This document shows positions 12,707 through 64,000 of a stretch of 64,000 bases of DNA, in pieces. Within the stretch, counting starts at the first letter, position 1, and each line of letters opens with the position of its first letter. A program made the translations under genes and the position numbers. Below the pieces are notes generated by a model. The model did not search any database. It was not told where the DNA came from and saw only the letters and a list, made by a program, of their open reading frames with translations. Source of the stretch: Candidatus Polarisedimenticolia bacterium (lineage in GTDB: Bacteria; Acidobacteriota; Polarisedimenticolia; Gp22-AA2); assembly GCA_036001465.1 (NCBI GenBank), contig DASYUH010000046.1:19993-83992 (forward strand). The letters are read 5' to 3'.

Positions 12707-12898
12707 TCGACTCGCAACCTCGTGGTCGAAGACCCCAACAGCCCTGAAATCAGCCGGTTAGCTCCTTGGTGCGGCGGCGATCCACTCTCGTGGGGCCTCC
12801 GCCCTCCACATCCCCCGAGGTCCGTCCTGCTGTCTCCCGACTGAAATTCCGGGAACGAAGTGCCGGCGTCGGTCGTATGATCCCACCGGGCAATCCAA

Positions 12899-15409
12899 AT
12901 GGTCACTACCTTCGTCCAGGATCTCCGCGTCGGGCTGCGCGTTCTCCTCCGGGAGAAGGGCTTCTGCGCCATGGCCATCGCCGTCCTGGCGCTCGGCATC
13001 TGCGGCGTCACCACCACGTTCAGCGTGGTGAACGGGGTGATGCTGCGCGGGTTCTCGTTTCCGAACTCCGCCCGGCTGGTCAGCGTCAACTTCATCGATC
13101 CGACCAGCAAGAACTTCTTCGGCCAGAACGGTCAGATCTCGGCCATGGACTTCGAAGAGGTGCGCCCGCAGGCGAAGTCGTACGAGCTCATGTCCGCCTA
13201 CATCAACGGCTCGACCGTCAACGCGACGATCGACGGGACTCCCCGGCGCTACACGGGCGCCTACGTGACACCCGACTTCCTCAGGATTCTCGGCGTGGCA
13301 CCCAGTATCGGGCGCGACCTGAGGGCGGAGGACAATGCCCCCGGCGCCGAGAAGGTCGCCATCATCGGTTACGGCCTCTGGCAGCGCGACTTCGGCGGGA
13401 CGCAGGACATCGTGGGCAAGGGGCTCCGCATCAACGGGACGCCGGCGACGATCGTCGGCGTGATGCCCAAGGGCTTCGCGTTCCCGATCAACGAGGAGCT
13501 GTGGATCCCGCTCTACAGCGAGTTCCCGGTGCGCGAGCGCAACAACCCGCGCAACGTCAACCCCGGGGTGGTGGCGCTGCTCAAGCCGGGCGTTTCGCTG
13601 GACCAGGCCAACGCCGAGGCGACGACGCTCGCGAGGCGCCTCGCGGAGGCCTATCCGGAGACCAACAAGCAGTTCAACACGGGCAAGGTCGAGCCGCTGC
13701 TCAAGACGTACACGCCGCTGCCCCTGCGCGGCACGCTCCTCACGATGCTGGCATTCTGCGTGGGCCTGCTTTTGATCGGGTGCGTCAACGTGATGAACAT
13801 GCAGTTCGCCCGGGCGACCCTGCGGGCGAGGGAGCTGGCCATCCGCTCGTCGCTCGGCGCCAGCCGGACCCGCCTGATCTTCCAGATGCTGACCGAGAGC
13901 CTGCTGGTCACGGTCGTCGGCACCGCGGTCGGCGTGGGCCTGGCGTATTACTGCACCGACCTGCTGAACGCGACGGTCCGCAACTTCGACAACCCGCCGC
14001 CGTCGTGGATCACCTTCGACATCGACGGCCCGGTGCTGGGCTTCAGCATCGTCGCGATGCTCGCGGCCGCGATCGTGTCGGGGCTCCTGCCCGCCTGGAT
14101 GGCCTCGCGCGCCAACGTGGTCTCGGTGCTGAAGGAGGGCGGCCGGGGTGGCACGAGCCGCGGGACCCGGGTGGTCATGCGCGGCCTGGTGGTCCTTCAG
14201 GTTGTAGTGACCTGCGTCCTTCTGATCGGGTCACTGCTTCAAATGCAGTCGATCCTCAAGCAGCAGACGATCGACTACGGCTACGACACGGAAGGGCTCA
14301 TGTCGGCCCGCATGGGGCTGATGGACGGTGCTTATCCGACGCAGGAGCTGCGCAAGACCTTCTTCGACCGCCTCGTGCGCGAGCTGCAGGCCCACTCGGA
14401 GTTCGAGGCGGTGGCGCTCACCAACAAGTTCCGGATGGTCTTCTCGGGGAGCGGGCCGATCGAGATCGAGGGGAAGGAGTACAAGGAGAAGAAGGACCGC
14501 CCCAACGCCAACTTCGAGCAGGTCACGTCCGGCTACTTCGAGGTCCTCGGCCAGACGCTGATCGAGGGGCGCCGGTTCCAGGACGACGATCTCGACGACA
14601 AGCTGCCCGTGGCCGTCGTGAACGCGGCGTTCGCGCACAAGCACTTCGGCAACGAGAGCCCGCTGGGCCGGCGCTTCCGCGCCCTGGACGGCAACACGCT
14701 GCAGCCCGGCCCGTGGCGCACCATCGTCGGCGTCGTCAGGACCGTGCGGATGATGCCGCCCTTCAATATTCCGAACGTCGACGAGACGGGCTTCTACGTG
14801 CCGTTCTATTCGCAGCCGAGCGGCCCGGCGCAGCCGGGGCCGGCCGCCGCCCAATTCGCCACCGTCCTCGTCAGGCCGCGCGGCGGCCTGCGCGCCGACA
14901 CGCTGGCCAACGCGCTGCGCCGCGAGGTCGCCAAGGTGGACCCGGACCTGCCGCTTTACTACGTCGACACGCCCAAGCGGCAGATCGCGGGCTTCGTGAG
15001 CCAGGGCCGCGTCGTCGCCATCATGTTCTCGATCTTCGGGGCGGTCGCCATGGTGATCGCCGGGGTGGGGATCTACGGCGTCATGTCGTTCTCGGTGAAC
15101 CAGCGCACCCAGGAGCTGGGTGTTCGCATGGCCCTGGGCGCCGACAGCCGGCGCATCCTTCGCATGGTGCTGCGCCAGGGTTCGGTCCTGACAGGGGTCG
15201 GCCTGGCGCTCGGGCTGCTGATCACGCTGGGGCTGGCCGGGGCCGCGGGAGAGGGCATCCAGAGCGTCCTGTTCGGCGTCAGCCCGCTCGACCCGCTCAT
15301 CTATGCCGCCGTGGCCGCGATGATAGCGGCCGTTTCGCTCGCGGCCTCGTTCGTCCCCGCCCGGCGCGCCACGCGCGTGGACCCGATGATCGCGCTGCGC
15401 GCCGAGTAG
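12899..15409 (+). CDS. ADOP-family duplicated FtsX/MacB-type ABC permease
   Basis: 836 aa. N-terminus MVTTFVQDLRVGLRVLLREKGFCAMAIAVLALGI is typical of this family. There are two FtsX 4-TM modules, each preceded by a large periplasmic domain, and the protein ends ...ARRATRVDPMIALRAE. Confidence 0.9.
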   Translation: MVTTFVQDLRVGLRVLLREKGFCAMAIAVLALGICGVTTTFSVVNGVMLRGFSFPNSARLVSVNFIDPTSKNFFGQNGQISAMDFEEVRPQAKSYELMSAYINGSTVNATIDGTPRRYTGAYVTPDFLRILGVAPSIGRDLRAEDNAPGAEKVAIIGYGLWQRDFGGTQDIVGKGLRINGTPATIVGVMPKGFAFPINEELWIPLYSEFPVRERNNPRNVNPGVVALLKPGVSLDQANAEATTLARRLAEAYPETNKQFNTGKVEPLLKTYTPLPLRGTLLTMLAFCVGLLLIGCVNVMNMQFARATLRARELAIRSSLGASRTRLIFQMLTESLLVTVVGTAVGVGLAYYCTDLLNATVRNFDNPPPSWITFDIDGPVLGFSIVAMLAAAIVSGLLPAWMASRANVVSVLKEGGRGGTSRGTRVVMRGLVVLQVVVTCVLLIGSLLQMQSILKQQTIDYGYDTEGLMSARMGLMDGAYPTQELRKTFFDRLVRELQAHSEFEAVALTNKFRMVFSGSGPIEIEGKEYKEKKDRPNANFEQVTSGYFEVLGQTLIEGRRFQDDDLDDKLPVAVVNAAFAHKHFGNESPLGRRFRALDGNTLQPGPWRTIVGVVRTVRMMPPFNIPNVDETGFYVPFYSQPSGPAQPGPAAAQFATVLVRPRGGLRADTLANALRREVAKVDPDLPLYYVDTPKRQIAGFVSQGRVVAIMFSIFGAVAMVIAGVGIYGVMSFSVNQRTQELGVRMALGADSRRILRMVLRQGSVLTGVGLALGLLITLGLAGAAGEGIQSVLFGVSPLDPLIYAAVAAMIAAVSLAASFVPARRATRVDPMIALRAE

Positions 15410-51411: not shown

Positions 51412-52028
51412 CCGCCGTCGCGGCCCCCTCAGCCTCCGTCCGGAAGGCCCGGATCGTCCCGGCGGTGGTGGTGTGCGGCCTCGTCCTGATCGCCGGGACG
51501 CCGGTCACGACGGCCCAGGCCGCGGCGCCGGGCGCCACGGTGTTCACGGCGGGCTCCGGCGAGATCGGGGCCGATGTCTCCGTGACCCGCTTCGATCCCG
51601 ACCTGACGGACGAACGCGGCGATCGGTACGCGCTGCGCGGAGGAGCCTTCATCGGACGCCAGATCCAGTGGGAGGCGGAGATCACGCGCGCCACGGCCCG
51701 GGAGGAGCTGTTCTCCGGCGCCGAGAAGAGGATCACGCTGGCCCTTGCCGTGGCCAACGTGGTCGTCAATTTCTACCCGGGAGGACGAACCGTTCCGTAC
51801 GTCCTGGCGGGCATGGGAGTGGGGCAGATGAAGCTCGAGGCGATCGGTCTGTCGTCGCGCGAGACGGCCACCGCCTACCAGATCGCGGGCGGCTGCCGCT
51901 TCTTCATTGGAAGGAACAACCGCGCGGCCGCGCGCCTCGAGCTGGCCCTCCTGGCGAACGAGGGGTTCGACGAGCGCTACGTCCACGCCTCGCTGGGGGC
52001 GGGAATGACCTTCCGACTCGGACAGTAG
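51408..52028 (+). CDS. outer-membrane beta-barrel (OMP_b-brl-like) protein; start uncertain
   Basis: Signal-like ...RKARIVPAVVVCGLVLIAGTPVTTAQA, then alternating beta-strand pattern (ALAVANVVVNFY, PYVLAGMGVGQ, AYQIAGGCRFFI, LELALLA, ASLGAGMTFRLG). There is no in-frame ATG. Candidate starts are CTG 51408 (overlapping the upstream stop) or GTG 51465. Confidence 0.55.
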   Translation: MTAVAAPSASVRKARIVPAVVVCGLVLIAGTPVTTAQAAAPGATVFTAGSGEIGADVSVTRFDPDLTDERGDRYALRGGAFIGRQIQWEAEITRATAREELFSGAEKRITLALAVANVVVNFYPGGRTVPYVLAGMGVGQMKLEAIGLSSRETATAYQIAGGCRFFIGRNNRAAARLELALLANEGFDERYVHASLGAGMTFRLGQ

Positions 52029-52047: not shown

Positions 52048-52968
52048 TCAGTGCGGTCGCGTCCTCTCCGGCACCGGCACAAGGCACTGCGGCAGGCGGC
52101 GCAGCGATTCCAGCCCGAAGACCAGTCGCTGGCCGTCCTGGTATCCGCTGGTGTAGCGGTTGGCCGCCTCGCCGGCGAAGGCGGCCAGGCTGACGCGCGC
52201 CGGGGCCGGGGCGACGGTGGTGAAATCACGGCTCATCAGGTCGCCGCAGCGGCCGAGATCGACGGCGCGCATCGCTTCGATTCCGGCCGCGAACCCCTTG
52301 AGGTAGTCGGCGTCGACCGAGACGCGATCCGCCAGGCGCGAGGTCTCCGCCATCGCCTTGTCGATCTTCGCGCGGACGGCGGTGTTGGCCTGCTCCGCCT
52401 TCCAGATATTGTGCTCGGCCAGGGTCTCGTCGTAGTCGGCCGGGTAGGCGTCGCGCTTCCTGTGGTTCCACGCCTTGGCCTGCATGGCCTCGTCCTGGCT
52501 GGTGTGCCGCTTCAGGATCGGGTGGAGCGCCGTGTCGATGCCGTCGAGGTTCGACCTGGACACGACCTCGCGCGGCAGCTCGACCTCCAGCTCCATGAGA
52601 CAGCGCGCTTCGTTGTAGAGCGTGAACGGCCCGTCCTGGGACGACACCAGGATCGGCTCCGGGAGGCTCAGGAGCAGGTCGAGACGCGCGCGCTTGAGGT
52701 CCACCTTCACGACCTGCGCCAGCTCGCCTGGACGGAACCGCATCCTGCCCCGGCTCGTGACCAGAGTCTCGTTCACCCGGTTGTTGGTGTGGGTCCCCGC
52801 GCAGTCGGAATAGGTGTCCACGTTGGTCAGGATCCAGGCCCCGCGCCAGCGCGCCTCCAGCCGGCGCTCCAGGTCGGAGGCCTCGGCGGGACGCGGCGAT
52901 TGAATGAGGCCCAGCGCCGACAGCGCCGCCGCGAAGGACATCACCCACCGCAATTTCGATTGTGTCAT
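52048..52968 (-). CDS. secreted hypothetical protein
   Basis: GGGAGGAG RBS before ATG 52968; signal peptide MTQSKLRWVMSFAAALSALGLIQSPRPAEA. Protein-like composition, but I recognised no family. Confidence 0.6.
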   Translation of the reverse strand: MTQSKLRWVMSFAAALSALGLIQSPRPAEASDLERRLEARWRGAWILTNVDTYSDCAGTHTNNRVNETLVTSRGRMRFRPGELAQVVKVDLKRARLDLLLSLPEPILVSSQDGPFTLYNEARCLMELEVELPREVVSRSNLDGIDTALHPILKRHTSQDEAMQAKAWNHRKRDAYPADYDETLAEHNIWKAEQANTAVRAKIDKAMAETSRLADRVSVDADYLKGFAAGIEAMRAVDLGRCGDLMSRDFTTVAPAPARVSLAAFAGEAANRYTSGYQDGQRLVFGLESLRRLPQCLVPVPERTRPH

Positions 52969-53065
52969 CGGATTCTCCTCCCTGGGCTTCACCAGCCAGA
53001 ACCTAGGTTTCGACGTCTCCCGTGTCAACCGCCACGCCGCGCGAGGGGGATGCTAGGATGCGCGC

Positions 53066-54259
53066 GTGACCGACCGCGTCGTCCTGTATGCGGCCGCCTT
53101 CGTGCGCGCCCTGGGGACCGGCATGATCGGCGTCCTCATGGGCGTCTATCTCGCCCGGCTCGAGTTCGATCCGGCGCGGATCGGCTACGTGGTCGGCGCC
53201 GGGCTTCTCGGATGCGCCGCCGCGGCCCTTCTGGTGACCCTGTTCGCCGATCGCGCCGGCCGCCGGAGGTCCCTCATCGCCGTGTCGCTCCTGTCGTTCG
53301 CGGGCGGCTGCGCGTTCGCCCTCACCGCGCACCCCTTCGCCGCGGGGGCGGCGGCCTTCCTCGGGATGGTGAACGGCATGGGGCGCGACCGCGGCGCCTC
53401 GCTCATCCTCGACCAGGTCATCCTGCCGGCGACCGTCGGCGACGAGCGCCGGACGCGCGCCTTCGCCTGGTACAACGTCCTGCAGGACATCGGCCACGCC
53501 GTGGGCGGGCTCCTGGCGGGACTGCCGGCCCTGCTCCGCGGGCTGGGGGCGGAGGGGCTCGGGTCCTACCGGCTGAGCGTCGGCTTCTACGCCCTGCTGA
53601 TGCTGGCCTGCGCGGCGCTCTACCTTCGCCTGTCGTCGCGCGTCGAGCCGGATCCCGCACACCCCCTGAAGGCGCGCGTCTCCCCCGCGACGCGGCGCGT
53701 CCTCTGGCGCATCTCGTCCCTGTTCGCCCTGGACAGCCTGGCCGGCGGGTTCCTGACCACGGCGCTCCTGAGCTTCTTCTTCTACGAGCGCTTCGGCGTA
53801 GGGGAGGCGGTCCTCGGCCCGCTGTTCTTCGGGGCGCGGGTCCTGAACGCCCTGTCCCACCTGGGGGCGGCGTGGCTGGCGCGCCGCTTCGGGCTGGTCA
53901 ACACCATGGTCTTCACCCACATCCCTTCGAGCCTCCTGATGATCACCGTGGCCTACGCGCCGAGCTTCCCGATCGCCGCCCTTCTCTTCCTGCTGCGCGA
54001 GGGGCTGGTGGAGATGGACGTGCCGACCCGCCAGTCGTACGTCATGGCGGTGGTGCGTCCCGAGGAGCGCACCCTGGCCTCCGGCGTCACCCACCTCGTC
54101 CGGGTCGGCGCGTGGGCCGTCGCCCCGGCGTTTGCCGGCTGGTTCATGGGCGGGCTGTCGCTGATGACCCCCCTGGTCATCGGGTCGTGCATGAAGGTGG
54201 TGTACGACATCATGCTCTATGCCGCCTTCCGGGGGACGCGGGCGCCCGAGGAGGTTTGA
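53066..54259 (+). CDS. MFS transporter
   Basis: 12 hydrophobic segments; ...FADRAGRRRS... in loop 2-3 (MFS signature-like). The stop lies 8 nt before the Fur-family ATG. Confidence 0.85.
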   Translation: MTDRVVLYAAAFVRALGTGMIGVLMGVYLARLEFDPARIGYVVGAGLLGCAAAALLVTLFADRAGRRRSLIAVSLLSFAGGCAFALTAHPFAAGAAAFLGMVNGMGRDRGASLILDQVILPATVGDERRTRAFAWYNVLQDIGHAVGGLLAGLPALLRGLGAEGLGSYRLSVGFYALLMLACAALYLRLSSRVEPDPAHPLKARVSPATRRVLWRISSLFALDSLAGGFLTTALLSFFFYERFGVGEAVLGPLFFGARVLNALSHLGAAWLARRFGLVNTMVFTHIPSSLLMITVAYAPSFPIAALLFLLREGLVEMDVPTRQSYVMAVVRPEERTLASGVTHLVRVGAWAVAPAFAGWFMGGLSLMTPLVIGSCMKVVYDIMLYAAFRGTRAPEEV

Positions 54260-54267
54260 CAGGGCGG

Positions 54268-54774
54268 ATGGGCCGGGCCATAATTGAGACTGAGTTGCAA
54301 CTAGAGGTCACGCTGAAAGCCATCGATCGATTCGCCCGGTTCCTGTCCCAGAACCGTCTCAAGATGACGAAGGAGAGGCGCGCCATCCTGGCTGACGTGC
54401 TGTCGGTGCGCGGGCACTTCGACGTGGACGATCTGCTGGCCCGCCTGCGCCGCACGGGGCACCACGTGTCGCGCGCCACCCTGTACCGCACCCTGCCGCG
54501 CCTGGTCGAGTCGGGCCTGATCCACAAGGTCGAGATGGCCGGGGGCCAGGCGCGCTACGAGCTGATGGTGGGGCGGCACCACCACGATCACATGGTCTGT
54601 CTCGGCTGCGGCGACATTCTCGAGTTCGAGAGCGCCGAGGTCGAGCGCATCCAGGAAGAGGTCTGCCGCCGCAAGAAATTCGTGATGACCGGCCACACCC
54701 ACCAGATCCGCGGCTACTGCGCGGCGTGCGCCGGCGACGGCCGGGCGGGCGCCGTCCCGCGCAAGGCGCACTGA
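54268..54774 (+). CDS. fur: Fur-family metalloregulator
   Basis: ...FLSQNRLKMTKERRAILADVL...VSRATLYRTLPRLVESGLI...HHHDHMVCLGCGDILEF...GYCAACAG has a winged helix, a His-rich site and two CxxC pairs. Confidence 0.85.
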   Translation: MGRAIIETELQLEVTLKAIDRFARFLSQNRLKMTKERRAILADVLSVRGHFDVDDLLARLRRTGHHVSRATLYRTLPRLVESGLIHKVEMAGGQARYELMVGRHHHDHMVCLGCGDILEFESAEVERIQEEVCRRKKFVMTGHTHQIRGYCAACAGDGRAGAVPRKAH

Positions 54775-56108
54775 TGCTCGAAGCCCTGGTCGTGACCCTC
54801 CGGGAGGGAGTCGAGGCGGCCCTGGTCGCCGGCATCATCTTGATCTACCTCCGCAAGACCGGGCGCGCGGCGCTCGAGCGCTGGGTCTACCTGGGCCTTT
54901 CGGCCGGCGTCGCGGCGAGCGTCGCCTGCGCCTTCGCGTTCGCCCGCATGGAGATCGCGGAGGAGGTCTACGAGGGCTGGCTGATGATCGCCGGCGCCGT
55001 CCTGGTGACCACGATGGTCATCTGGATGCTGCGCACGGCGAAGGGGCTCAAGCAGCAGATCGAGGCCCGCGTCGAGGCGATCGCCTCCCGGTCCCTCGGT
55101 GCGGCGGCGCAGGGGGACGCGGCGGCACAGAGGGGCGCCGTGGCGGCCGGCCTGTTCGGCCTCACGTTCGTCCTCATCCTGCGCGAGGGGATCGAGACGG
55201 TCCTGTTCCTGGCGGCGGTCAACCTGACCACCGACTCGCTCCTGACCTTCTTCGGCGGGCTCCTGGGGATCGGCCTGGCAATCCTGTTCGGCGTCGCGTT
55301 CGTGCGCGGCACGGCGCGCGTCGACCTGCAGCGCTTCTTCACCGTCACCGCCATCGTCCTGTTCGTCCTGGCGGCCCAGCTCCTGGTCGGCGGCCTGCAC
55401 GAGTTCGGCGAGCGCGGCACCATCCCGATCGGCGCGAAGGAGATGGAGCTCATCGGTCCGGTCGTGAAGAACAACGCCATCCTCCTGGCTTCGCTCCTGG
55501 CGCTGCCGCTCATCGTCCTCCTGGTGCCGGGCCGCGCCGAGAAGAAGCGGGCCTCCGAGGCGGCTGGGCTCGAGGGGCCGGAGCGGCGCCTGGCGCTCGC
55601 CGGAATGCAGCGCGAGCGCCTCTGGAAGCGGACGTTCGCCGTGGCCGGGATCGTCGCCATCACGGCGCTCACCGTCTCGCACGCCTTTTCACGCCTGCCG
55701 CGCGGCGTCGATCCGCCGGTCCTGCTCGAGCCCGACGCCGCGGGAATCGTGCGCCTCCCGAAGGCCGGGTTCGAGGACGGGCGCCTGCACCGCTACGGGG
55801 TCGAGACCGACGGCGCCGTGGTGCGGTTCTTCGTGAAGAAGTCCGGCTCCCGCCTCGTTCCGGTGTTCGACAGCTGCCAGGTGTGCGGGGCCCACGGCTA
55901 CGCCGACCTGAAGGGACGGCTCGTCTGCCTGGCGTGCGCCGCCGACGTCAACCCGGCGACCCTGGGGACGGGGGGCGGCTGCAACCCGATTCCGCTGCCG
56001 TTCAAGGACGAGGGGGCGAGCCTCGCGATCGCCGTTTCTGATCTGAAGACGCAGGCGGCGGCGTTCCGCGCCGCGCAATCGACGGCGGCGAAGCCTCCCG
56101 CCGACTGA
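54774..56108 (+). CDS. FTR1/EfeU-type iron permease fused to a DUF2318-like Cys-rich domain
   Basis: Two REGxE motifs (TLREGVEAALV, ILREGIETVLF) in a 7-TM region. C-terminal domain ...LHRYGV...VRFFV...VFDSCQVCGAHGYADLKGRLVCLACAADVNP...GGGCNPIPLP. The start overlaps the fur stop (TGATG). Confidence 0.8.
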   Translation: MLEALVVTLREGVEAALVAGIILIYLRKTGRAALERWVYLGLSAGVAASVACAFAFARMEIAEEVYEGWLMIAGAVLVTTMVIWMLRTAKGLKQQIEARVEAIASRSLGAAAQGDAAAQRGAVAAGLFGLTFVLILREGIETVLFLAAVNLTTDSLLTFFGGLLGIGLAILFGVAFVRGTARVDLQRFFTVTAIVLFVLAAQLLVGGLHEFGERGTIPIGAKEMELIGPVVKNNAILLASLLALPLIVLLVPGRAEKKRASEAAGLEGPERRLALAGMQRERLWKRTFAVAGIVAITALTVSHAFSRLPRGVDPPVLLEPDAAGIVRLPKAGFEDGRLHRYGVETDGAVVRFFVKKSGSRLVPVFDSCQVCGAHGYADLKGRLVCLACAADVNPATLGTGGGCNPIPLPFKDEGASLAIAVSDLKTQAAAFRAAQSTAAKPPAD

Positions 56109-56119
56109 GAGGCCGGGCC

Positions 56120-57445
56120 ATGTTCCTGCGACTCGTCGTGCATTCCCTGCTGCGCCGCAAGAGGCGGAAGACCGTGATCATGGCGGCGATCGCCCTCGGG
56201 ACCGCGGCCGCGGCGGCGCTCGGAGATATCGCGCTCGACATCGGCGACAAGGTGAGCCGCGAGCTGAGCTCGTTCGGCGCCAACCTCGTCGTCCTGCCGG
56301 CGGGCGGCGGCGCCCCGGTCGTGGTCGGCGGCGAGGACGTGTCCGCCCTGCGCGTCCCGGCGTACCTGGGCCGCCAGGACCTGAGCAACGTCCGGGAGAA
56401 TTTCTGGAAAAACAACATCCTGGGGTTCGCGCCGGTCTTCGACGTCGCGGGGCGGCTCGCTCCGGGGGGCCGGGCCGTGACGCTGCGCGGCACCTGGTTC
56501 GACCGGAATGTCGAGGGGGCCGATCCGCCGCTGCGCACGGGGCTGCGCAGCCTGAATCCGTTCTGGAGCGTGACGGGGGAGTGGCCGGACGAGGCCGGCC
56601 TCCCCGCCCTGGCGCCGGCCGGGGACACGCAGCCCGATCCGGGGCCGCTCGAGGCGCTGGCCGGCGGCAACCTGGCGGCGGAGATCGGGCTGCGCCCCGG
56701 GAATCGCCTGAGGATTTCCGTCGCGGGCCGCATGGCGCCGCTGATCGTCACCGGGATCGTGAGGACCGGCGGAGAGGACGAGGACGCGCTGCTCCTGCCG
56801 ATCGAAACGGCCTGGAGCCTCGCCGGACAGCCGGGCCGGATCTCACGCGTCTTCGTGCGGGCCCTGACGACGCCCGAGACGGCCGTGTACGAGAGACTGG
56901 GTGCCAGCCCCAGGGACCTGCCGCCGGAGGAGTTCGAACGCTGGACCTGCACGCCGTTCCCCTCGTCCATCGCCTACGAGCTGCAGCGCGCTGTGCCCGG
57001 ATCGGAGGCGCGCGTCATTCGCCGGGTGGCCGATTCGGAGGGGGTCATCCTGCGGCGAATCTCCGGCCTGATGGCCGCGATCGCCGTGCTGGCGGCGCTC
57101 GGCTCGGCCCTGGCGGTCACCAGCGCCCTGTCGACGAGCGTGCTCGAGCGCCGGTCGGAGATCGGCCTGCTCAAGGCGATGGGGGCGGGGAACCCGCGCG
57201 TCGTCGCGCTGTTCCTGGCGGAGGCCGTCCTGTTCGGCGTCACCGGGGGGCTCCTCGGAGCGGGGCTCGGGGCGCTGATGGCGCGCTTCATCTCCACGTC
57301 GGTGTTCGGGGCGCCCGTGACGATCCGGCCGTCCGCCATCCCCCTGGCGATCGCCGTGGCGCTTCTGATCACGACCGCCGGATTCGTCATGCCGGCGCGG
57401 CGCATCCTGCGATTCCGCCCGTACGAGGTGCTGCGTGGACTCTAG
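56120..57445 (+). CDS. FtsX/MacB-type ABC permease (1 of 2)
   Basis: N-terminal TM, a periplasmic domain of about 250 aa, and a C-terminal FtsX 3-TM module (...RRSEIGLLKAMGAGNPRVVALFLAEAVLFG...). Confidence 0.85.
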   Translation: MFLRLVVHSLLRRKRRKTVIMAAIALGTAAAAALGDIALDIGDKVSRELSSFGANLVVLPAGGGAPVVVGGEDVSALRVPAYLGRQDLSNVRENFWKNNILGFAPVFDVAGRLAPGGRAVTLRGTWFDRNVEGADPPLRTGLRSLNPFWSVTGEWPDEAGLPALAPAGDTQPDPGPLEALAGGNLAAEIGLRPGNRLRISVAGRMAPLIVTGIVRTGGEDEDALLLPIETAWSLAGQPGRISRVFVRALTTPETAVYERLGASPRDLPPEEFERWTCTPFPSSIAYELQRAVPGSEARVIRRVADSEGVILRRISGLMAAIAVLAALGSALAVTSALSTSVLERRSEIGLLKAMGAGNPRVVALFLAEAVLFGVTGGLLGAGLGALMARFISTSVFGAPVTIRPSAIPLAIAVALLITTAGFVMPARRILRFRPYEVLRGL

Positions 57446-58667
57446 CCGCGTCCCCACGGAAGCCCCCGCGTCCCGGGGACGGGCCGCTCCGGCCGGCCGG
57501 CCTCCGCGAGGGATCCGGCACGAGCCCCGGCGCTTCATCACCTCGGCCCGGTTCCTCCTCCGCTCGCTGAACCTGCGTGGCGCGGCGTTCCTCCTGGCGC
57601 TCCTGGCGGTCACGGTCGGCGCGACGGTGACCGCGACCGTCCTCAACCTGAAGGCCGGCCTCAAGGAGAAGATGTCGCGCGAGCTGCGGGCCTACGGTCC
57701 GAATCTGCTGGTCGTCCCGCGCTCGGACACCGCGGCCCAGCGCGCCGGCGACCCGGCGTCGATCACCCTGCTCGAAGAGGACCTGCGCGCGGTGCCGGCG
57801 ATCCTGGGATCCCGGACGGCCGTCGTGCCGGTTCTGATCGCCGGAGGGACGGCGGCCGGCCACGCCGCGACCCTCGTCGGCGCCGACTTCGATGCCCTGC
57901 ACCGCCTGTACCCCGGATGGCGCCTCGAGCCCGCGCCCCCGGCCGGGCCGGCGTGCGTTCTCGGCGTGGCGCTGGCGCGGCGGGCCGGCGCGCGGGCCGG
58001 GGATCCGATCGAGATCGGCACGGGGTCCGGCTCGGCGACGCTCCGGGTCGCGTCGCTGCTCTCGACGGGGGAGGCGGAGGACGAGCAGGTCTTCGTCCCG
58101 CTGGCATTCCTGCAGGGACTCGTGGACCGTCCCGGGCAGGCGTCGTTCGCCGCGCTGTCGATCGACGGCGGGGCGCCGGGTGTCGGCAGGGCCTCGGCCG
58201 CGATCGACCGGGCGCTGCCCCGCGCCCGGGCGCGCCCGCTGCGGGCGATCGCCCTGGCGGAGGGGGCGCTGCTCGATCGGCTCGACCGGATGATGCACCT
58301 CCTGACCCTGGTGATCCTGCTGCTTTCCGGTCTCTGCCTGGTCACGACCCTCATGTCGATGGTGGTCGAGCGCGAATCGGAGATCGGCCTGGCCCGCGCC
58401 ATCGGCGCCGGAGACGGGGAGATCTTCCGGATGTTCCTGGGGGAGATCGGCCTGCTCGGGGTCCTCGGCACGCTCGCGGGTCTGGTGCTCGGCGCCGGCG
58501 TGACGCGGCTGATCGGCGAGGGCCTGTTCGGCGCCCCCATCGAGGCGAGCCTGTCGGTTGCGCCGGTCGTCCTCGGGATGTCGATGCTCATCTGCCTGAT
58601 CGCCGTGTACGTTCCCCTCCGGCGCGCCCTGGCGATCCAGCCGGCGGCGGCGCTGCGAGGGGAGTGA
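57435..58667 (+). CDS. FtsX/MacB-type ABC permease (2 of 2)
   Basis: Same architecture (...RESEIGLARAIGAGDGEIFRMFLGEIGLLG...). The GTG start overlaps the upstream stop by 11 nt, and the exact start is uncertain. Confidence 0.8.
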   Translation: MDSSRVPTEAPASRGRAAPAGRPPRGIRHEPRRFITSARFLLRSLNLRGAAFLLALLAVTVGATVTATVLNLKAGLKEKMSRELRAYGPNLLVVPRSDTAAQRAGDPASITLLEEDLRAVPAILGSRTAVVPVLIAGGTAAGHAATLVGADFDALHRLYPGWRLEPAPPAGPACVLGVALARRAGARAGDPIEIGTGSGSATLRVASLLSTGEAEDEQVFVPLAFLQGLVDRPGQASFAALSIDGGAPGVGRASAAIDRALPRARARPLRAIALAEGALLDRLDRMMHLLTLVILLLSGLCLVTTLMSMVVERESEIGLARAIGAGDGEIFRMFLGEIGLLGVLGTLAGLVLGAGVTRLIGEGLFGAPIEASLSVAPVVLGMSMLICLIAVYVPLRRALAIQPAAALRGE

Positions 58668-58683
58668 ACCCAGGAGACGTCGC

Positions 58684-59766
58684 GTGTCCTTCATCCAGAT
58701 CGACAACGTCACACGACGGTACGACAAGGGCGTGATCGCCCTCGAGCGCGTCAGCCTCGAGATCAAGCAGGGGGAGTGGCTGGCGATCATGGGTCCCTCG
58801 GGATCGGGCAAGACGACCCTTCTGAATCTTCTCGGGGGCCTCGACCTCGCCGATGAAGGGCGGGTGATCGTGGACGGCCTCGATCTGGCCCGCATCTCGC
58901 GCCCCGAGCTGATCCGCTACCGCCGCGAGCGCGTCGGACTGGTGTTCCAGCAGTTCCACCTCATCCCCTACCTGACCGCCCTGGAAAACGTCATGCTCGC
59001 CCAGTACCTGCACAGCATCACGGACGAAGGGGAGGCGGTGCAGGCGCTCACGCGGGTCGGCCTCGGAGACCGCCTCGGGCACCGCCCCGCGCAGCTGTCC
59101 GGCGGCGAGAGGCAGCGCGTCTGCATCGCGCGCGCCCTCATCAACCGACCGAAGCTCATCCTGGCGGACGAGCCGACCGGCTCGCTCGACGCCGAGAACG
59201 AGAGCGCCGTCCTCGACCTGTTCGCGCAGATCCACGACTCCGGCCAGACGATCGTCATGGTGACGCACGACCTCGTCGTCGGCCGGCGCGCCTCGCGCCA
59301 GATCCAGCTCGAGCACGGCCGGGTCGCCGGCGAGTTCCTGACCCTGCAGCAGGACGAGGAGGCGATCGACGAGGTCCTCGAGTACCTGTGGCTGAAGACC
59401 GAGGGGGACCCCGCGGCGCACGAGATCTGCGCCATCGGCGCGCGCCTCGCCACGCCGCAGCTCCTCGAGCGCATGCACGCCCGCGGCATCCTGCACCCGG
59501 GCGGCGGCCTCGAGTTCAGCGAGGACGGCCGCCGTCGCGCCGAGAGCCTGATCCGCCGCCACCGCCTGGCCGAGACCCTGTTCTCGGAGACCTTCCAGAT
59601 GCACGAGGCGGTCGTCGAAGAGGAGGCCTGCTTCTTCGAGCACATCCTGTCGCCCGTGATGACCGATTCGATCTGCGGCTTCCTGAACCACCCGCCCGCC
59701 TGTCCGCACGGCAAGCCGATCCCGCGCGGCGCGTGCTGCGTCGGACGATCGGCGTCGGCGCGGTAA
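58684..59766 (+). CDS. MacB/LolD-type ABC ATPase fused to a C-terminal DtxR/MntR-like metal-dependent regulator module
   Basis: aa 1-215: Walker A GPSGSGKTT, Q-loop, signature LSGGERQR, Walker B LILADEPT, H-loop VTHD. aa about 222-347: ...LLERMHARGIL...LEFSEDGRRRAESLIRRHRLAETLF...EEEACFFEHILS...LNHPPACPHGKPIP parallels the DtxR wHTH plus dimerisation/metal domain. Confidence 0.85.
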   Translation: MSFIQIDNVTRRYDKGVIALERVSLEIKQGEWLAIMGPSGSGKTTLLNLLGGLDLADEGRVIVDGLDLARISRPELIRYRRERVGLVFQQFHLIPYLTALENVMLAQYLHSITDEGEAVQALTRVGLGDRLGHRPAQLSGGERQRVCIARALINRPKLILADEPTGSLDAENESAVLDLFAQIHDSGQTIVMVTHDLVVGRRASRQIQLEHGRVAGEFLTLQQDEEAIDEVLEYLWLKTEGDPAAHEICAIGARLATPQLLERMHARGILHPGGGLEFSEDGRRRAESLIRRHRLAETLFSETFQMHEAVVEEEACFFEHILSPVMTDSICGFLNHPPACPHGKPIPRGACCVGRSASAR

Positions 59767-59897
59767 GTCGCCATCGGTACTCGGGTTCCGGCCATGCCCG
59801 TTGTCAGGAGGCGTTTCCTGGCCACTCGAAATTGAAATCGCTCCCGCCAGTCGGGTCTTCCGATTCACCTCAAGGTGCCCCCATCCTGCGGCTCGGA

Positions 59898-60584
59898 ATG
59901 CTGGTCGTCCTCGCGGTCACGATTTTCACCGAATGTCATGGACGAGTCTCCCGCGCACTGATTCACGATCCGATTGTCGCCGCCGCCGCCGCGGAAGAAT
60001 TCGCGCGCGTGGCCTTCGTCGAGCGCAATGCCGATGCCGCCTACAGGCTCGTCTGGGAAGAATGGAAGACGGAGCTGTCGCTTGGCATGTTGATCCTGAC
60101 CCTCAAGCAGATCCACCCGAGTGGCTTTCCATCCCGAGTGCGTGCCGAAGAGTACGAACCCATTCCAGACAAGCCAGCGATGGCGATATTCCTGAATGGG
60201 GAGAATGACGCGGGAGAGACATTCTACTATCGGTTTGTCATGGCGGGATCCGCTGCGGAAGGCTACAAAGTGGGCGGCTTTCTCCGAGGCAGCGGACCGT
60301 ATCCCAAATCGTCGACCAGACGTCCATTGCATGCAGCCATGACCAGGCGCCGCGATCGAGCCGCATGGAGCGCGATGTCGCTCCCCTGCCGTCACGATGG
60401 AGCCGTGGTGGCGCCGGGCCGAAAATCGGAGCGGAATCGGATGTGTTACCATGCAGTGCCCGATCATCGAGGAGGTGATCATGCACCCCGCCCCGCAGTT
60501 CTCGATGACCAAAACCGTAATCGTGATGGTGGCCATGGGCGTCGCGGCTTGTTCGGGCGACAGCAACCGGCCGGTCCCCGATAA
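59898..60584 (+). CDS. hypothetical protein; 3' part doubtful
   Basis: The first 135 or so codons look coding (MLVVLAVTIFTECHG...FYYRFVMAGSAAEGYKVGGFLRGSGPYP) in a region of visibly lower GC. The last 90 or so codons are Arg-rich and overlap the next gene by 104 nt. Confidence 0.4.
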   Translation: MLVVLAVTIFTECHGRVSRALIHDPIVAAAAAEEFARVAFVERNADAAYRLVWEEWKTELSLGMLILTLKQIHPSGFPSRVRAEEYEPIPDKPAMAIFLNGENDAGETFYYRFVMAGSAAEGYKVGGFLRGSGPYPKSSTRRPLHAAMTRRRDRAAWSAMSLPCRHDGAVVAPGRKSERNRMCYHAVPDHRGGDHAPRPAVLDDQNRNRDGGHGRRGLFGRQQPAGPR

Positions 60585-61825: not shown

Positions 61826-62506
61826 GTGACGACCTCGACGCCGCGTGCTTCGGGCGAGCTCGCGAATCTGGCGCGCCTCCTGGGCGAGCGGGCGGGCGTG
61901 ACCGGCCCGTCATCCTGGCTGATCGAGAACGCGGATCTTCTGCCGCCCGTGCCGTCGCCAGGGACGCCTGCCGGGGCGTTGCCCGCCCAGGCGCAGCGCC
62001 CTCGCGCGCTCGACGTGGCGTGCGGGTCGGGGCGGCACGCGCTCCTGCTGGCGGCCGCCGGCTTCGAGGTGCTGGCGATCGACCGGGACGCCGCGGCGAT
62101 CGAGGCGCTGCGCGCGGCGGCGGGGAGGCTGGGCCTGACGCTTCGCGCGGAAGTCCGTGATCTCGAGGCCCGCGACCGCGAGAGCGGCGGCGCCGGCCAC
62201 GGATCGATCGCGGGGCCTCTCGAGGTGGCCGGCCCCTCCACCTACGACGTGATCCTGGTCGTGCACTACCTGCATCGCCCGCTCTTCCCGGCGCTCGTGA
62301 GCGCCCTCGCCCCGGAAGGGCTCCTGCTCTACGAGACGTTCACCGTCGACCAGGCGGCACGCGGCCATCCGAAGAACCCCGACTTCCTGCTGAAGCATGG
62401 GGAGCTTCCCGGGCTGGTGGCGCCGCTCGCGATCGTCCGGCAGCGGGAGGGGGAGTTCGACGGCCGCTTCGTCGCGGCCGTGGCGGCGGTCAGAAGCCGA
62501 TCTTGA
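61826..62506 (+). CDS. class I SAM-dependent methyltransferase
   Basis: Motif I ALDVACGSGRHALLLAAAGFEVLAIDRD; post-I/II ...YDVILVVHYLHRPLF...LAPEGLLLYETF. GTG 61826 is the first in-frame start after the promoter-like box. Confidence 0.75.
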   Translation: MTTSTPRASGELANLARLLGERAGVTGPSSWLIENADLLPPVPSPGTPAGALPAQAQRPRALDVACGSGRHALLLAAAGFEVLAIDRDAAAIEALRAAAGRLGLTLRAEVRDLEARDRESGGAGHGSIAGPLEVAGPSTYDVILVVHYLHRPLFPALVSALAPEGLLLYETFTVDQAARGHPKNPDFLLKHGELPGLVAPLAIVRQREGEFDGRFVAAVAAVRSRS

Positions 62507-64000
62507 GCCCCGCCTCGATGGTGCGGGGGGGGCCGAGCTGTCCGATGGGGCGGCCGAAGCCGAACGAGGTCACCCGTCCGTCGATCGGGCCGCCGTTCCA
62601 GCGGTCGAGGGCGTTGAACACCTGGAAGAAGAATTCCCCTCCGGCGTGGCGCTCCCCCCAGGCGAATGGCCGCGAGAGCCGGAAGTCGACCTGCGCGAAA
62701 TGCGGCGGCGAGGGGATCGACTGGACCGCCGGGAGAAGCGGCAGGGAGAGCTGCCCCCTGAGGACGTTGGCATCGTCGCGGGTGAGATTGATCGGTCCGA
62801 GGGACGTGGACTCGCCGGTGTTGCGGCGCACGCCGTCCGGCCTGTCGGTGGTGATGCCGTCGACGTTCTCGTCGCGGCCGGTCGTGACGTTGAACGGTGC
62901 GGCGGTGGCGAGCTGGACGACGGTCGAGACGCGCAGGCCGAGCCAGGGGAGGCGGGCCCCGCCCGCGAGGACCAGGCGGTGGCGGCGGTCGGCGTCGCTC
63001 CGGGCGCGCTCGCCTTGGATGTTGTCCGAGTCGGGGGGGAGCCAGATCCCTTCGCGCAGCGGGTCCGAGCCCAGATCCATGGCGCGCGACAGCGTGTACG
63101 AGGCCGACCACCAGGAGTCCTTTCCCCGCAGTCGGTAGTCGATCTTCAGGCCGTTGTACCAGGATCGTCCCTCCGTCACGATGGCGGCGATCGAGCCGAC
63201 CGTGGTGTCGCGGTGATGGGGCGAGCCGTCGGCGTTCTTGCTCAGAACCGGGTTCAGGTCGCGCAGGAGCGCCTGGTGATAACCGAGGGCGCGCGTCAGG
63301 CCGGCCTCGATCGATCCCCGCGTCCCCACCGCCCAGTCGGCCCCCAGCGCGTACTCGACGGTGTACGGCGTGTCGAGCCGCGTGCCGGTCGAGAAGCGCA
63401 GGATCAGCTCGGGGGGGAAGACGAGTCCCGCCTTGACGGCGTCGATGCCGACCTGCTCGACGACGTCCTCGGTGATCTCGAGCGCCGCCCCCTGCGGGAA
63501 GAACAGGCCGATCTGGGTCCCGGAGGTGATCGAGGCGACCGCCGGAAAGCCGAGAACCAGCTTGTCGTAGAAGACCCCGGCGCCGCCGCGCAGGACGATG
63601 CGCCCCGCGGGCCGGGGCGTGAAGGCGAAGCCGAACCGGGGGGCCAGGTTGTCGGTGTCGCGATCGGCGCCGCCGTTCTCGATGAACGACGGCACGGACG
63701 TCCCCTCCGGCAGCCTGAAGGTGCTCAGGTCGTAGCGCAGGCCGTAGTCGAGGACCAGGCGCTCGCCGGCATGCCAGGAGTCCTGGGCGAAGAATCCCAG
63801 GCGAGTGTCATTGAGATCGGCGACCGGCTCCCCGTCGATGAACTGGAACACGAGCGGGTAGGTCCGGATGAGCCCGGGCTCGTCGACCTTGCCGTCGCCG
63901 TCGTCGTCGACCATCGGGGTGCCGTCGCACGGGATCGGATTGTCGCCGTAGGTCGCGACGTCGTTGGAGTTCAGGTCGCCGCAGTCCCCCGGCTCGAAGG
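62490..64000 (-). CDS. TonB-dependent receptor-like outer-membrane beta-barrel (5' end off the right edge)
   Basis: The frame stays open upstream of the track Met at 63914 to the window edge. ...LDYGLRYD...APRFGFAFTP...GGAGVFYD... and a C-terminal ...TIEAGLKIGF with terminal Phe. Confidence 0.8.
   Translation of the reverse strand, partial: FEPGDCGDLNSNDVATYGDNPIPCDGTPMVDDDGDGKVDEPGLIRTYPLVFQFIDGEPVADLNDTRLGFFAQDSWHAGERLVLDYGLRYDLSTFRLPEGTSVPSFIENGGADRDTDNLAPRFGFAFTPRPAGRIVLRGGAGVFYDKLVLGFPAVASITSGTQIGLFFPQGAALEITEDVVEQVGIDAVKAGLVFPPELILRFSTGTRLDTPYTVEYALGADWAVGTRGSIEAGLTRALGYHQALLRDLNPVLSKNADGSPHHRDTTVGSIAAIVTEGRSWYNGLKIDYRLRGKDSWWSASYTLSRAMDLGSDPLREGIWLPPDSDNIQGERARSDADRRHRLVLAGGARLPWLGLRVSTVVQLATAAPFNVTTGRDENVDGITTDRPDGVRRNTGESTSLGPINLTRDDANVLRGQLSLPLLPAVQSIPSPPHFAQVDFRLSRPFAWGERHAGGEFFFQVFNALDRWNGGPIDGRVTSFGFGRPIGQLGPPRTIEAGLKIGF

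Follow-up and report, generated by a model that had tools for sequence, protein, structure and literature searches.

A conserved acidobacterial gene cluster with FTR1::DUF2318 and ABC::DtxR fusions as a putative Fur-controlled, P19-independent metal importer

What an ATP-binding cassette (ABC) module of the MacB type does beside an FTR1 permease is the question raised by a gene cluster at 53066-59766 of a 64,000-nucleotide (nt) stretch of contig DASYUH010000046.1 from a Candidatus Polarisedimenticolia bacterium, referred to here as the window. For the related FetMP-FetABCDEF system, what FetA and the FetBCD ABC transporter do, and on which substrate, has explicitly been described as unresolved (PMC10783030). 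The candidate cluster is known here from computation alone, through sequence comparison, predicted structures and gene neighbourhoods. These make it fairly probable that the window encodes a Fur-repressed, P19-independent importer of metal, most likely iron, which would be the acidobacterial form of the FetMP-FetABCDEF/P19-associated system and would have a metal-inhibited ATPase.

Six genes with their domains had been named by a sequence-only reading of the window, and they were upheld by Pfam and NCBIfam scans of the window open reading frames (ORFs) and by the gene calls of the Joint Genome Institute (JGI) for the source contig, which stems from a soil metagenome. The first encodes a transporter of the major facilitator superfamily (MFS). 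Lengths are in amino acids (aa).

53066-54259, plus strand: MFS transporter gene; 397 aa; Pfam MFS_1 E 3.8e-27; stop codon 54257-54259.
54313-54774 (likely start CTG), plus strand: Fur-family regulator gene; 153 aa; Pfam FUR PF01475 E 2.2e-30.
54774-56108, plus strand: FTR1::FtrD-like gene; 444 aa; FTR1 PF03239 E 5e-39 and FtrD-like/DUF2318 PF10080 E 1e-21.
56120-57445, plus strand: FtsXa gene, MacB-type permease, FetB orthologue; 441 aa; Pfam FtsX.
57435-58667, plus strand: FtsXb gene, MacB-type permease, FetC orthologue; 410 aa; Pfam MacB_PCD and FtsX.
58684-59766, plus strand: ABC ATPase gene, whole; 360 aa; Pfam ABC_tran and Fe_dep_repr_C.
58684-59343, plus strand: ABC ATPase domain, FetD orthologue; Walker A from residue 37, LSGG at residue 138.
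59344-59766, plus strand: DtxR/IdeR-like tail of the ATPase; residues 221-360; Fe_dep_repr_C PF02742 E 1.5e-23.

Four junctions stand as first described, namely a 1-nt overlap between fur and ftr1::ftrD, an 11-nt gap between ftr1::ftrD and ftsXa, an 11-nt overlap between ftsXa and ftsXb and a 16-nt gap between ftsXb and the ATPase gene. Close spacing of genes on one strand is by itself ordinary, and the real evidence is the conservation of the core across related loci. The JGI calls depart from the map only in the start of FtsXb, placed at 57627; the start at 57435 is preferred because the later one would remove the first transmembrane helix (TM1). The JGI call for FtsXb at L002 12854-13894 is wrong, since it begins 64 codons late and TM1 is lost. 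Long spurious ORFs are common in the window because its G+C content is 69%.

The Fet proteins used as reference were those of the E. coli IncF plasmid cluster, which comprises fetM (FTR1, 628 aa), fetP (P19), fetA (FtrD-like and YHS), fetB, fetC, fetD and a TlpA-like gene. By BLASTP, FtsXa matched FetB over its full length with 37% identity (E 2e-94), FtsXb matched FetC over its full length with 30% identity (E 9e-55) and the ATPase domain was 57% identical to FetD (E 2e-84). The permease pairs were reciprocal-best, with 279 bits for FtsXa against FetB and 140 against FetC, and 173 versus 129 bits for the FtsXb pair. Both permeases contain the FtsX four-helix domain and the motifs of their cognate ATPase (Walker A, LSGG) are intact. 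The window genes follow the fet order of FetA (its C-terminal part), FetB, FetC and FetD, and the likeness to Campylobacter jejuni cj1658-cj1663 that had first been noted holds as homology of the DUF2318, FtsX, FtsX and ABC genes to the Fet/cj1660-1663 module.

A comparison of FTR1, DUF2318, FtsX and ABC neighbourhoods, which had been suggested as a check, was run across genomes. A protein search with FTR1::FtrD gave 1839 matches at E <= 1e-5, and the best 120 of them all had FTR1 and FtrD-like domains and carried the database names "FTR1 family protein", "high-affinity iron transporter" and "Fe-S-containing protein". A scan of species-representative genomes gave at least 600 matches, 567 of them confirmed, and the locus counts given here refer to the best 80, each taken with at most 8 kb of flanking sequence on either side. 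Nearly all belonged to Acidobacteriota (Polarisedimenticolia, Terriglobia, Ca. Angelobacter and Ca. Sulfotelmatobacter), apart from one TA06 contig and one record titled "uncultured bacterium". The core of FTR1::FtrD, FtsXa, FtsXb and ABC::DtxR was complete in 68 of these 80 loci, the other 12 being cut by contig ends, and its adjacency was kept in every one of the 68. Judged from these sequences, Acidobacteriota appear to have this arrangement as their usual FTR1 system, a standard form in the phylum and not the one-off compact variant for which it had been taken.

The same results bear on whether the FtsX and ABC genes could instead be an unrelated export system, for lipoprotein, antimicrobial peptides or macrolides, placed next to FTR1 by accident. 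Generic NCBIfam and PDB matches to LolCDE, MacB and FtsEX would fit such a system, but the solved LolC, MacB and FtsX matched the C-terminal FtsX domain alone and weakly (E 6e-9 to 1e-4). Accidental adjacency was rejected because the Fet orthologues match far better and stand in fet order; with the neighbourhood retained in all untruncated loci, the export explanation is left with next to no likelihood.

Neither the window nor the best 80 loci with their flanks gave a phmmer match to P19/FetP (PF10634) at E <= 1e-5, the best P19 tblastn match in the window had an E value of 0.36, and the 64-kb window contains no homologue of TlpA-like proteins or of the FetM N-terminal domain. The absence of P19 and thioredoxin genes reported earlier for the operon therefore holds for the whole window. 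Across the 80 loci a TlpA-like ORF was present in two: in L015 it precedes the permease gene by about 700 nt, and in L053 by about 5 kb. The search for redox partners covered thioredoxin/TlpA, and proteins binding flavin mononucleotide (FMN) were not searched for. The L015 ORF (1083-1712) lies in the TA06, non-acidobacterial contig, which is too short to reach the ATPase, and this locus may stand between the canonical form and the acidobacterial one.

The cluster shares several features with FetMP-FetABCDEF as found in C. jejuni (cj1658-cj1665 / CJJ81176_1649-1656), on E. coli and Salmonella plasmids and on the Yersinia chromosome: a REXXE-bearing permease of the FTR1 family, a membrane-anchored DUF2318 domain with CxxC-x13-CxxC-x14/15-C, FetB- and FetC-type permeases followed in identical order by a FetD-type ATPase, and a Fur-type box at the promoter. 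It differs in that the P19/FetP gene is missing and a TlpA-like gene nearly always so, the FTR1 part is short and EfeU-like and lacks the N-terminal periplasmic domain of about 350 residues found in FetM, and the TM7-TM8-DUF2318 part is fused to FTR1 whereas the six N-terminal helices and the YHS domain of FetA are absent. The ATPase has a DtxR-like module in addition to what is found in E. coli FetD (231 aa), and in the window clade a fur paralogue opens the unit. All 33 of the 33 homologous clusters compared by Liu et al. keep fetM and p19 as separate first genes and have a thioredoxin or an FMN-binding protein as the seventh. The window system is not a strict member of the canonical Fet cluster, because the P19 and redox-partner features are absent.

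Both domains of FTR1::FtrD lie in one polypeptide, as had been read from the sequence. Residues 1-213 form the FTR1 permease part with two REXXE motifs, REGVE at residues 10-14 (nt 54801-54815) and REGIE at residues 137-141 (nt 55182-55196). TM7 and TM8 come after this part, and the Cys-rich domain occupies residues 334-431 (nt 55773-56066) with the motif C368xxC371-x13-C385xxC388-x14-C403 (nt 55875-55982). Invariant across 115 homologues were R10, E11 and G12, R137, E138, G139 and E141, and the five cysteines C368, C371, C385, C388 and C403, whose spacing is that of the CxxC-x13-CxxC-x14/15-C motif known from C. jejuni FetA (PMC6083913). Residues 217-444, comprising TM7, TM8 and the Cys-rich domain, were 33% identical to residues 180-409 of E. 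coli FetA (E 9e-27), and residues 1-208 were 25% identical to the FTR1 core of FetM and better matched by EfeU-type models.

The AlphaFold2 (AF2) model of FTR1::FtrD, with a predicted local distance difference test score (pLDDT) of 80.7 and a predicted template-modelling score (pTM) of 0.71, has eight long helices, a beta domain (residues 325-420) and a final helix. In the FTR1 family the N-terminus lies outside the cell, and the sequence of the 251-282 loop carries many positive charges; the Cys domain is placed in the periplasm because of these two features. For the DUF2318 beta domain the only notable Foldseek match was to the Rieske-type ferredoxin 3dqy (probability 0.91, E 0.15, template-modelling score 0.48), which fits the names "Fe-S-containing protein" and "FtrD-like" used in databases. 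The PDB held no sequence homologue of FTR1::FtrD and no FTR1 structure for comparison, and a Foldseek search with the membrane part gave no match. The profile of the FTR1::FtrD family extended into FetA residues 114-180. The N-terminal helices of FetA were compared as a possible degenerate FTR1, and hhalign of the N-terminal segments gave a probability of 0.2, equal to that of reversed-sequence controls, while FetA 1-212 had no FTR1 Pfam match even at E 10. On these comparisons there is no evidence that the window protein is an ancestral FetA rather than a fusion.

FtsXa carries a periplasmic motif, W275-x-C277-x-P279 (nt 56942-56956), which was kept in at least 93% of 77 FtsXa/FetB homologues, E. 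coli FetB included. From its sequence, the lone conserved periplasmic Cys of FtsXa, near the five-Cys domain, suggests a possible thiol or metal hand-over.

Where transcription of the cluster begins was addressed at the junction between the MFS gene and fur, where two further features were found.

54256-54284, plus strand: sigma-70-type promoter (predicted); TTGACA 54256-54261, 17-nt spacer, CATAAT 54279-54284.
54284-54300, plus strand: Fur-type operator (putative); TTGAGACT-G-AGTTGCAA, 8-1-8 inverted repeat.

In a consensus scan this promoter was the sole sigma-70-like site in 52800-60200, with 11 of 12 positions matching and 0.2 such sites expected by chance, and its -35 box overlaps the MFS stop codon. 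The operator abuts the -10 box and spans the expected transcription start; it was found once in the 64-kb window and 0 times in 100 shuffles. The same arrangement of TTGACA, ATAAT and operator occurs 5' of the fur homologue in L007, L008, L009 and L010, and the window operator itself is conserved in L007, L008 and L010. The start codons of fur in the four relatives (GTG, GTG, TTG and ATG) align to the window CTG at 54313, which stands five bases after an AGAGG Shine-Dalgarno sequence (54303-54307), and an alternative start is TTG 54295. The only upstream in-frame ATG of fur, ATG 54268, sits between the -35 and -10 boxes. The Fur-family gene thus likely starts at CTG 54313, judging from these alignments, and the 8-nt gap first given for the MFS/fur junction, which depended on ATG 54268, did not stand. 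The true distance between the two genes would be about 35-53 nt, with the promoter and operator contained in it, because ATG 54268 falls inside the promoter and the starts of the relatives align to CTG 54313. The encoded protein has the regulatory motif HHHDH and two CxxC pairs, as seen in its sequence and its alignment with the relatives, and reaches none of the NCBIfam equivalog cut-offs for Fur, Zur, PerR or Irr.

The transcription unit is probably fur–ftr1::ftrD–ftsXa–ftsXb–abc::dtxR, starting at the 54256-54284 promoter; it is taken to begin with fur and not with the MFS gene because the promoter, the operator and the aligned Fur starts all lie at the MFS/fur junction. A broader unit, in which all six genes including MFS form one translationally coupled operon with Fur embedded and the MFS protein as a working part, was how the cluster had first been described. 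The six genes do share a strand, a scan of 52800-60200 found no terminator-like site, and in L007 an MFS gene is again directly upstream with its stop codon within the -35 box. The lack of a terminator-like site and the L007 arrangement make read-through from MFS plausible. The six-gene operon is nevertheless unlikely: a near-consensus promoter with an operator separates MFS from fur, L008-L010 also have this promoter and operator ahead of fur, with upstream genes there that are unrelated to MFS, and MFS adjoins the core only in the window and L007 and is missing beside it in 78 of the 80 loci. The MFS gene is probably a lineage-specific upstream neighbour that may add read-through. As for the embedded regulator, fur is indeed adjacent to the core, but among the best 80 loci only in the closest clade (L007-L010 and L012). 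A search of sequencing runs found the locus sequence in DNA metagenomes only; five soil runs labelled RNA contained 5-8% of the locus words, in short contigs from 85-95% relatives with library type uncertain, and are not usable for operon boundaries.

Beyond the window clade, one of two operator classes was found just 5' of FTR1::FtrD, directly after a TTGAC(G/A)-N17-TATCCT or TACAAT promoter. Class 1 is TTGAAATTGAAATTCATTTTCAAAAT, and its exact 15-mer TGAAATTCATTTTCA was present in 41 of 80 loci while control windows were always at least four mismatches away from it; this class is a close variant of the classical Fur box, GATAATGATAATCATTATC. Class 2, to which the window operator belongs, is the perfect palindrome TTGCAACTCAGTTGCAA, found in about 10 Terriglobia loci at 35-100 nt upstream of FTR1::FtrD and just 3' of the promoter. 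Most Terriglobia loci have a Fur-box-like operator just downstream of the promoter and no adjacent regulator gene. Because operators of class 1 and class 2 adjoin promoters across loci, the comparison supports Fur-family control of the module in general, and it supports autoregulation in the window clade.

A gene for cytochrome c (PF13442) and one for a COX3-like membrane protein are located directly upstream of the promoter and operator in L054 (6707-7851) and in some 32 further Terriglobia loci. These could be a redox partner or mere synteny. In some fet clusters of Proteobacteria the eighth gene has been noted to encode a cytochrome (Liu et al.).

The ATPase was said to carry a DtxR-like sensor, and the comparisons extended this to the whole DtxR fold, with both of its domains and with metal ligands that are conserved. 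Residues 221-360 align by sequence to IdeR residues 42-133, and the AF2 model of the tail (pLDDT 91) matched IdeR/DtxR in Foldseek with probability 1.00 over 125-146 columns and a template-modelling score of about 0.65-0.73 against two-domain constructs of comparable length. As modelled, the tail is a full module with a part like a winged helix-turn-helix (wHTH) and a dimerisation and metal-binding part, without the SH3/FeoA domain. The IdeR/DtxR ligands H79, E83, H98, C102, E105, H106 and M10 correspond to H293, E297, E312, C316, E319, H320 and E230 of the tail, and the candidate ligands are followed by C351-C352. Across 68 acidobacterial homologues the equivalents of H79, E83, C102, E105 and H106 are kept, with H98 replaced by E and M10 by E, and RRHRLAE, ACxFEH and CPHGxPIPxGxCC are conserved while the stretch of the recognition helix is not.

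Such a tail might instead be a DNA-binding repressor tethered to the transporter and reading the operators upstream of the cluster. Its fold is that of a complete IdeR/DtxR repressor including the wHTH, the equivalents of IdeR Gln43 and Arg47 are retained in the window, and it shares 40-60% identity, over about 90% of the module, with free-standing 215-245-aa proteins (PF02742 plus FeoA) of Acidobacteriota and Thermodesulfovibrionales that are annotated as DtxR-family regulators. The many Terriglobia loci that have an operator and lack an adjacent regulator gene would also fit. However, the N-terminal part had no match to the Pfam HTH model (PF01325) even at E 10, the operator travels with a Fur-family gene in the window clade, and the wing that would contact DNA is interrupted in Terriglobia by an insertion of about 30 residues rich in His and Cys. 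The tail is read as a sensor and not as a reader of operators because its recognition helix is poorly conserved among the 68 homologues and nearly identical between loci with class-1 and class-2 operators, and a tethered repressor is considered very unlikely.

The Terriglobia insertion (for example in L026, L028 and L054), PHPPxxHxHKPFxNPCHdALKP, stands in the wHTH wing between ATPase residues about 268 and 270, has conserved His and Cys and may provide an additional metal site; the window clade lacks it. In the free-standing DtxR-like proteins (P0253-P0360) the wHTH escapes the Pfam HTH model, and the C-terminal motif 'PIPRGxCC' is common to them and the ATPase tail. By sequence, this subfamily is the likely donor of the fused module. 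A seeming stand-alone tail gene, P0249 (137 aa), was rejected as an NCBI artefact, since L087 7341-8414 encodes an intact 357-aa ABC::DtxR fusion of which NCBI wrongly labels the last 137 aa as an 'iron dependent repressor' domain protein.

The mechanism that we favour would run as follows. At low metal the Fur-like repressor would leave its operator, and fur to abc::dtxR would be transcribed as one autoregulated unit. The FTR1 part with its two REXXE motifs would conduct metal across the inner membrane, and TM8 would hold the five-Cys, Rieske-like DUF2318 domain in the periplasm at the mouth of the channel, where the tethered domain would carry out the metal-handling or redox step on which FTR1-type, oxidase-dependent permeases rely, and so replace P19, FetA and the thioredoxins. 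An FtsXa/FtsXb heterodimer and the ATPase would form a mechanotransmission complex of type VII through which no substrate is carried across the membrane; ATP hydrolysis in the cytoplasm would cause movements of the periplasmic domains that aid metal delivery or redox cycling at FTR1::DUF2318, and the W275-x-C277-x-P279 motif of FtsXa could meet the Cys domain. Once cytoplasmic metal rises, a DtxR-like dimer under the ATPase domains would bind metal, lock them and halt ATP turnover, a fast feedback akin to the trans-inhibition of MetNI or ModBC, with Fur repression as the slower control. More tentatively, we propose that a complete DtxR-type metalloregulator fold was taken over as an allosteric brake by which metal stops a type VII ATPase, and that FTR1::DUF2318 dispenses with P19; the four proteins would in that case amount to an ATP-assisted, metal-gated FTR1 importer that is self-contained.

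Several points weigh against this interpretation. We know of no precedent for trans-inhibition by a DtxR-type domain, and the Rieske-like assignment of the DUF2318 domain, taken from the model, is weak. The position of DtxR Met10 is a carboxylate, E230, beside the conserved D229, as in the Mn-sensing MntR. The window-type operator also seems to resemble the Mur boxes of Alphaproteobacteria. A P19 gene may be located elsewhere in the genome, beyond the window. The proposed CTG start of Fur is a rare start codon, and with no terminator found, read-through from MFS is possible.

The carboxylate at Met10 and the Mur-like look of the operator also bear on whether the system might handle another metal such as Mn2+, or serve periplasmic thiol or Fe-S redox chemistry, rather than net iron import. 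JGI labels the free-standing DtxR-like relatives 'Mn-dependent', and a role in redox chemistry would agree with the five conserved Cys of DUF2318, the one conserved periplasmic Cys of FtsXa/FetB and the thiol oxidase activity of FetE/F (PMC10783030). Against this, canonical Fet/sif orthologues are required specifically under iron limitation (C. jejuni and B. breve literature; PMC5449479 for sif), and the retained Cys is typical of Fe-sensing DtxR/IdeR. The characterised FTR1 permeases with two REXXE motifs are iron transporters. The non-iron reading is distinctly unlikely, and the transported metal is most likely iron because of the FTR1 family, the orthologue phenotypes, the retained Cys102 equivalent and the class-1 operator that is close to the Fur box; manganese is possible.

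Other FTR1 systems share parts of this architecture. Bifidobacterium breve bfeUO / sifABCDE has, as here, an FTR1 permease beside a cluster of DUF2318-type, FtsX, FtsX and ATPase genes, and sif is an iron-inducible transcription unit of its own that is needed under chelation of ferrous iron (PMC5449479). B. breve, however, has BfeO as a Tp34/P19-like protein of its own as well as the reductase SifE, and no fusions have been reported. FtrABCD (Bordetella, Brucella, Burkholderia) and EfeUOB also belong with the FTR1 family, and Pfam now calls DUF2318 'FtrD-like'. They are oxidase-dependent iron permeases with periplasmic metal-binding or redox partners; they lack a MacB-type ABC module and their partners are separate proteins (P19 FtrA, cupredoxin FtrB, polyferredoxin FtrD, EfeO/EfeB).

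FtsXa and FtsXb resemble the type VII systems MacB, LolCDE and FtsEX in having four-TM halves whose TM1 and TM2 flank a periplasmic domain, and a heterodimeric permease pair with a single ATPase gene is LolCE-like. The likeness in sequence does not extend beyond the C-terminal FtsX domain, a gene for a MacA-like adaptor is missing, and the ATPase bears a metal-sensor tail. That tail has the two-domain fold and metal ligands of DtxR, IdeR and MntR but is attached to an ABC ATPase instead of being a free factor, its recognition helix is unconserved and it has no SH3/FeoA domain. It sits where MetN and ModC have their regulatory domains, C-terminal to the ATPase domain; those domains mediate trans-inhibition. 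In the known ABC regulatory domains (MetN, ModC, MalK) the folds are different, and the ligand is the small molecule being transported rather than a metal bound via a DtxR fold. In the literature searched, no description of FTR1::DUF2318 or ABC::DtxR fusions was found, and databases give them generic names.

The cluster is flanked by envelope genes, none of which is kept beside the system in relatives. A gene on the minus strand at 62490-64000 encodes a beta-barrel like that of TonB-dependent receptors, which has a CarboxypepD_reg domain and is 959 aa long on the full contig, and a small outer-membrane beta-barrel is encoded at 51465-52028 on the plus strand. The divergent gene at 52048-52968 (minus strand) was considered as a P19 substitute and rejected, since it encodes a secreted 306-aa protein with no family match and is not conserved beside the system. 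Further away, at 12881-15406 on the plus strand, an 842-aa ORF with two FtsX-like regions resembles the ADOP-type duplicated permeases that are typical of Acidobacteria and is only distant kin of FtsXa and FtsXb (E about 1e-5 to 1e-8).

The Fet system is important to the way in which Campylobacter, Yersinia, bifidobacteria and plasmid-bearing E. coli and Salmonella acquire iron, and its acidobacterial form supplies two natural "Rosetta-stone" fusions that link the enigmatic ATP-driven component to the handling of metal. As FTR1 and DUF2318 share one chain, the Cys-rich domain can be argued to work at the permease itself; the DtxR-type module is on the ATPase, which argues for a coupling of the ATPase cycle to the cytoplasmic metal level. 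If the tail does act as a metal brake, it would be the first direct link at the sequence level between the FetBCD ATPase and cytoplasmic metal status, and it would be a new class of ABC regulatory domain. Acidobacteriota are a dominant soil phylum with a little-studied iron physiology, for which the conserved operators are a handle on Fur-family regulons.

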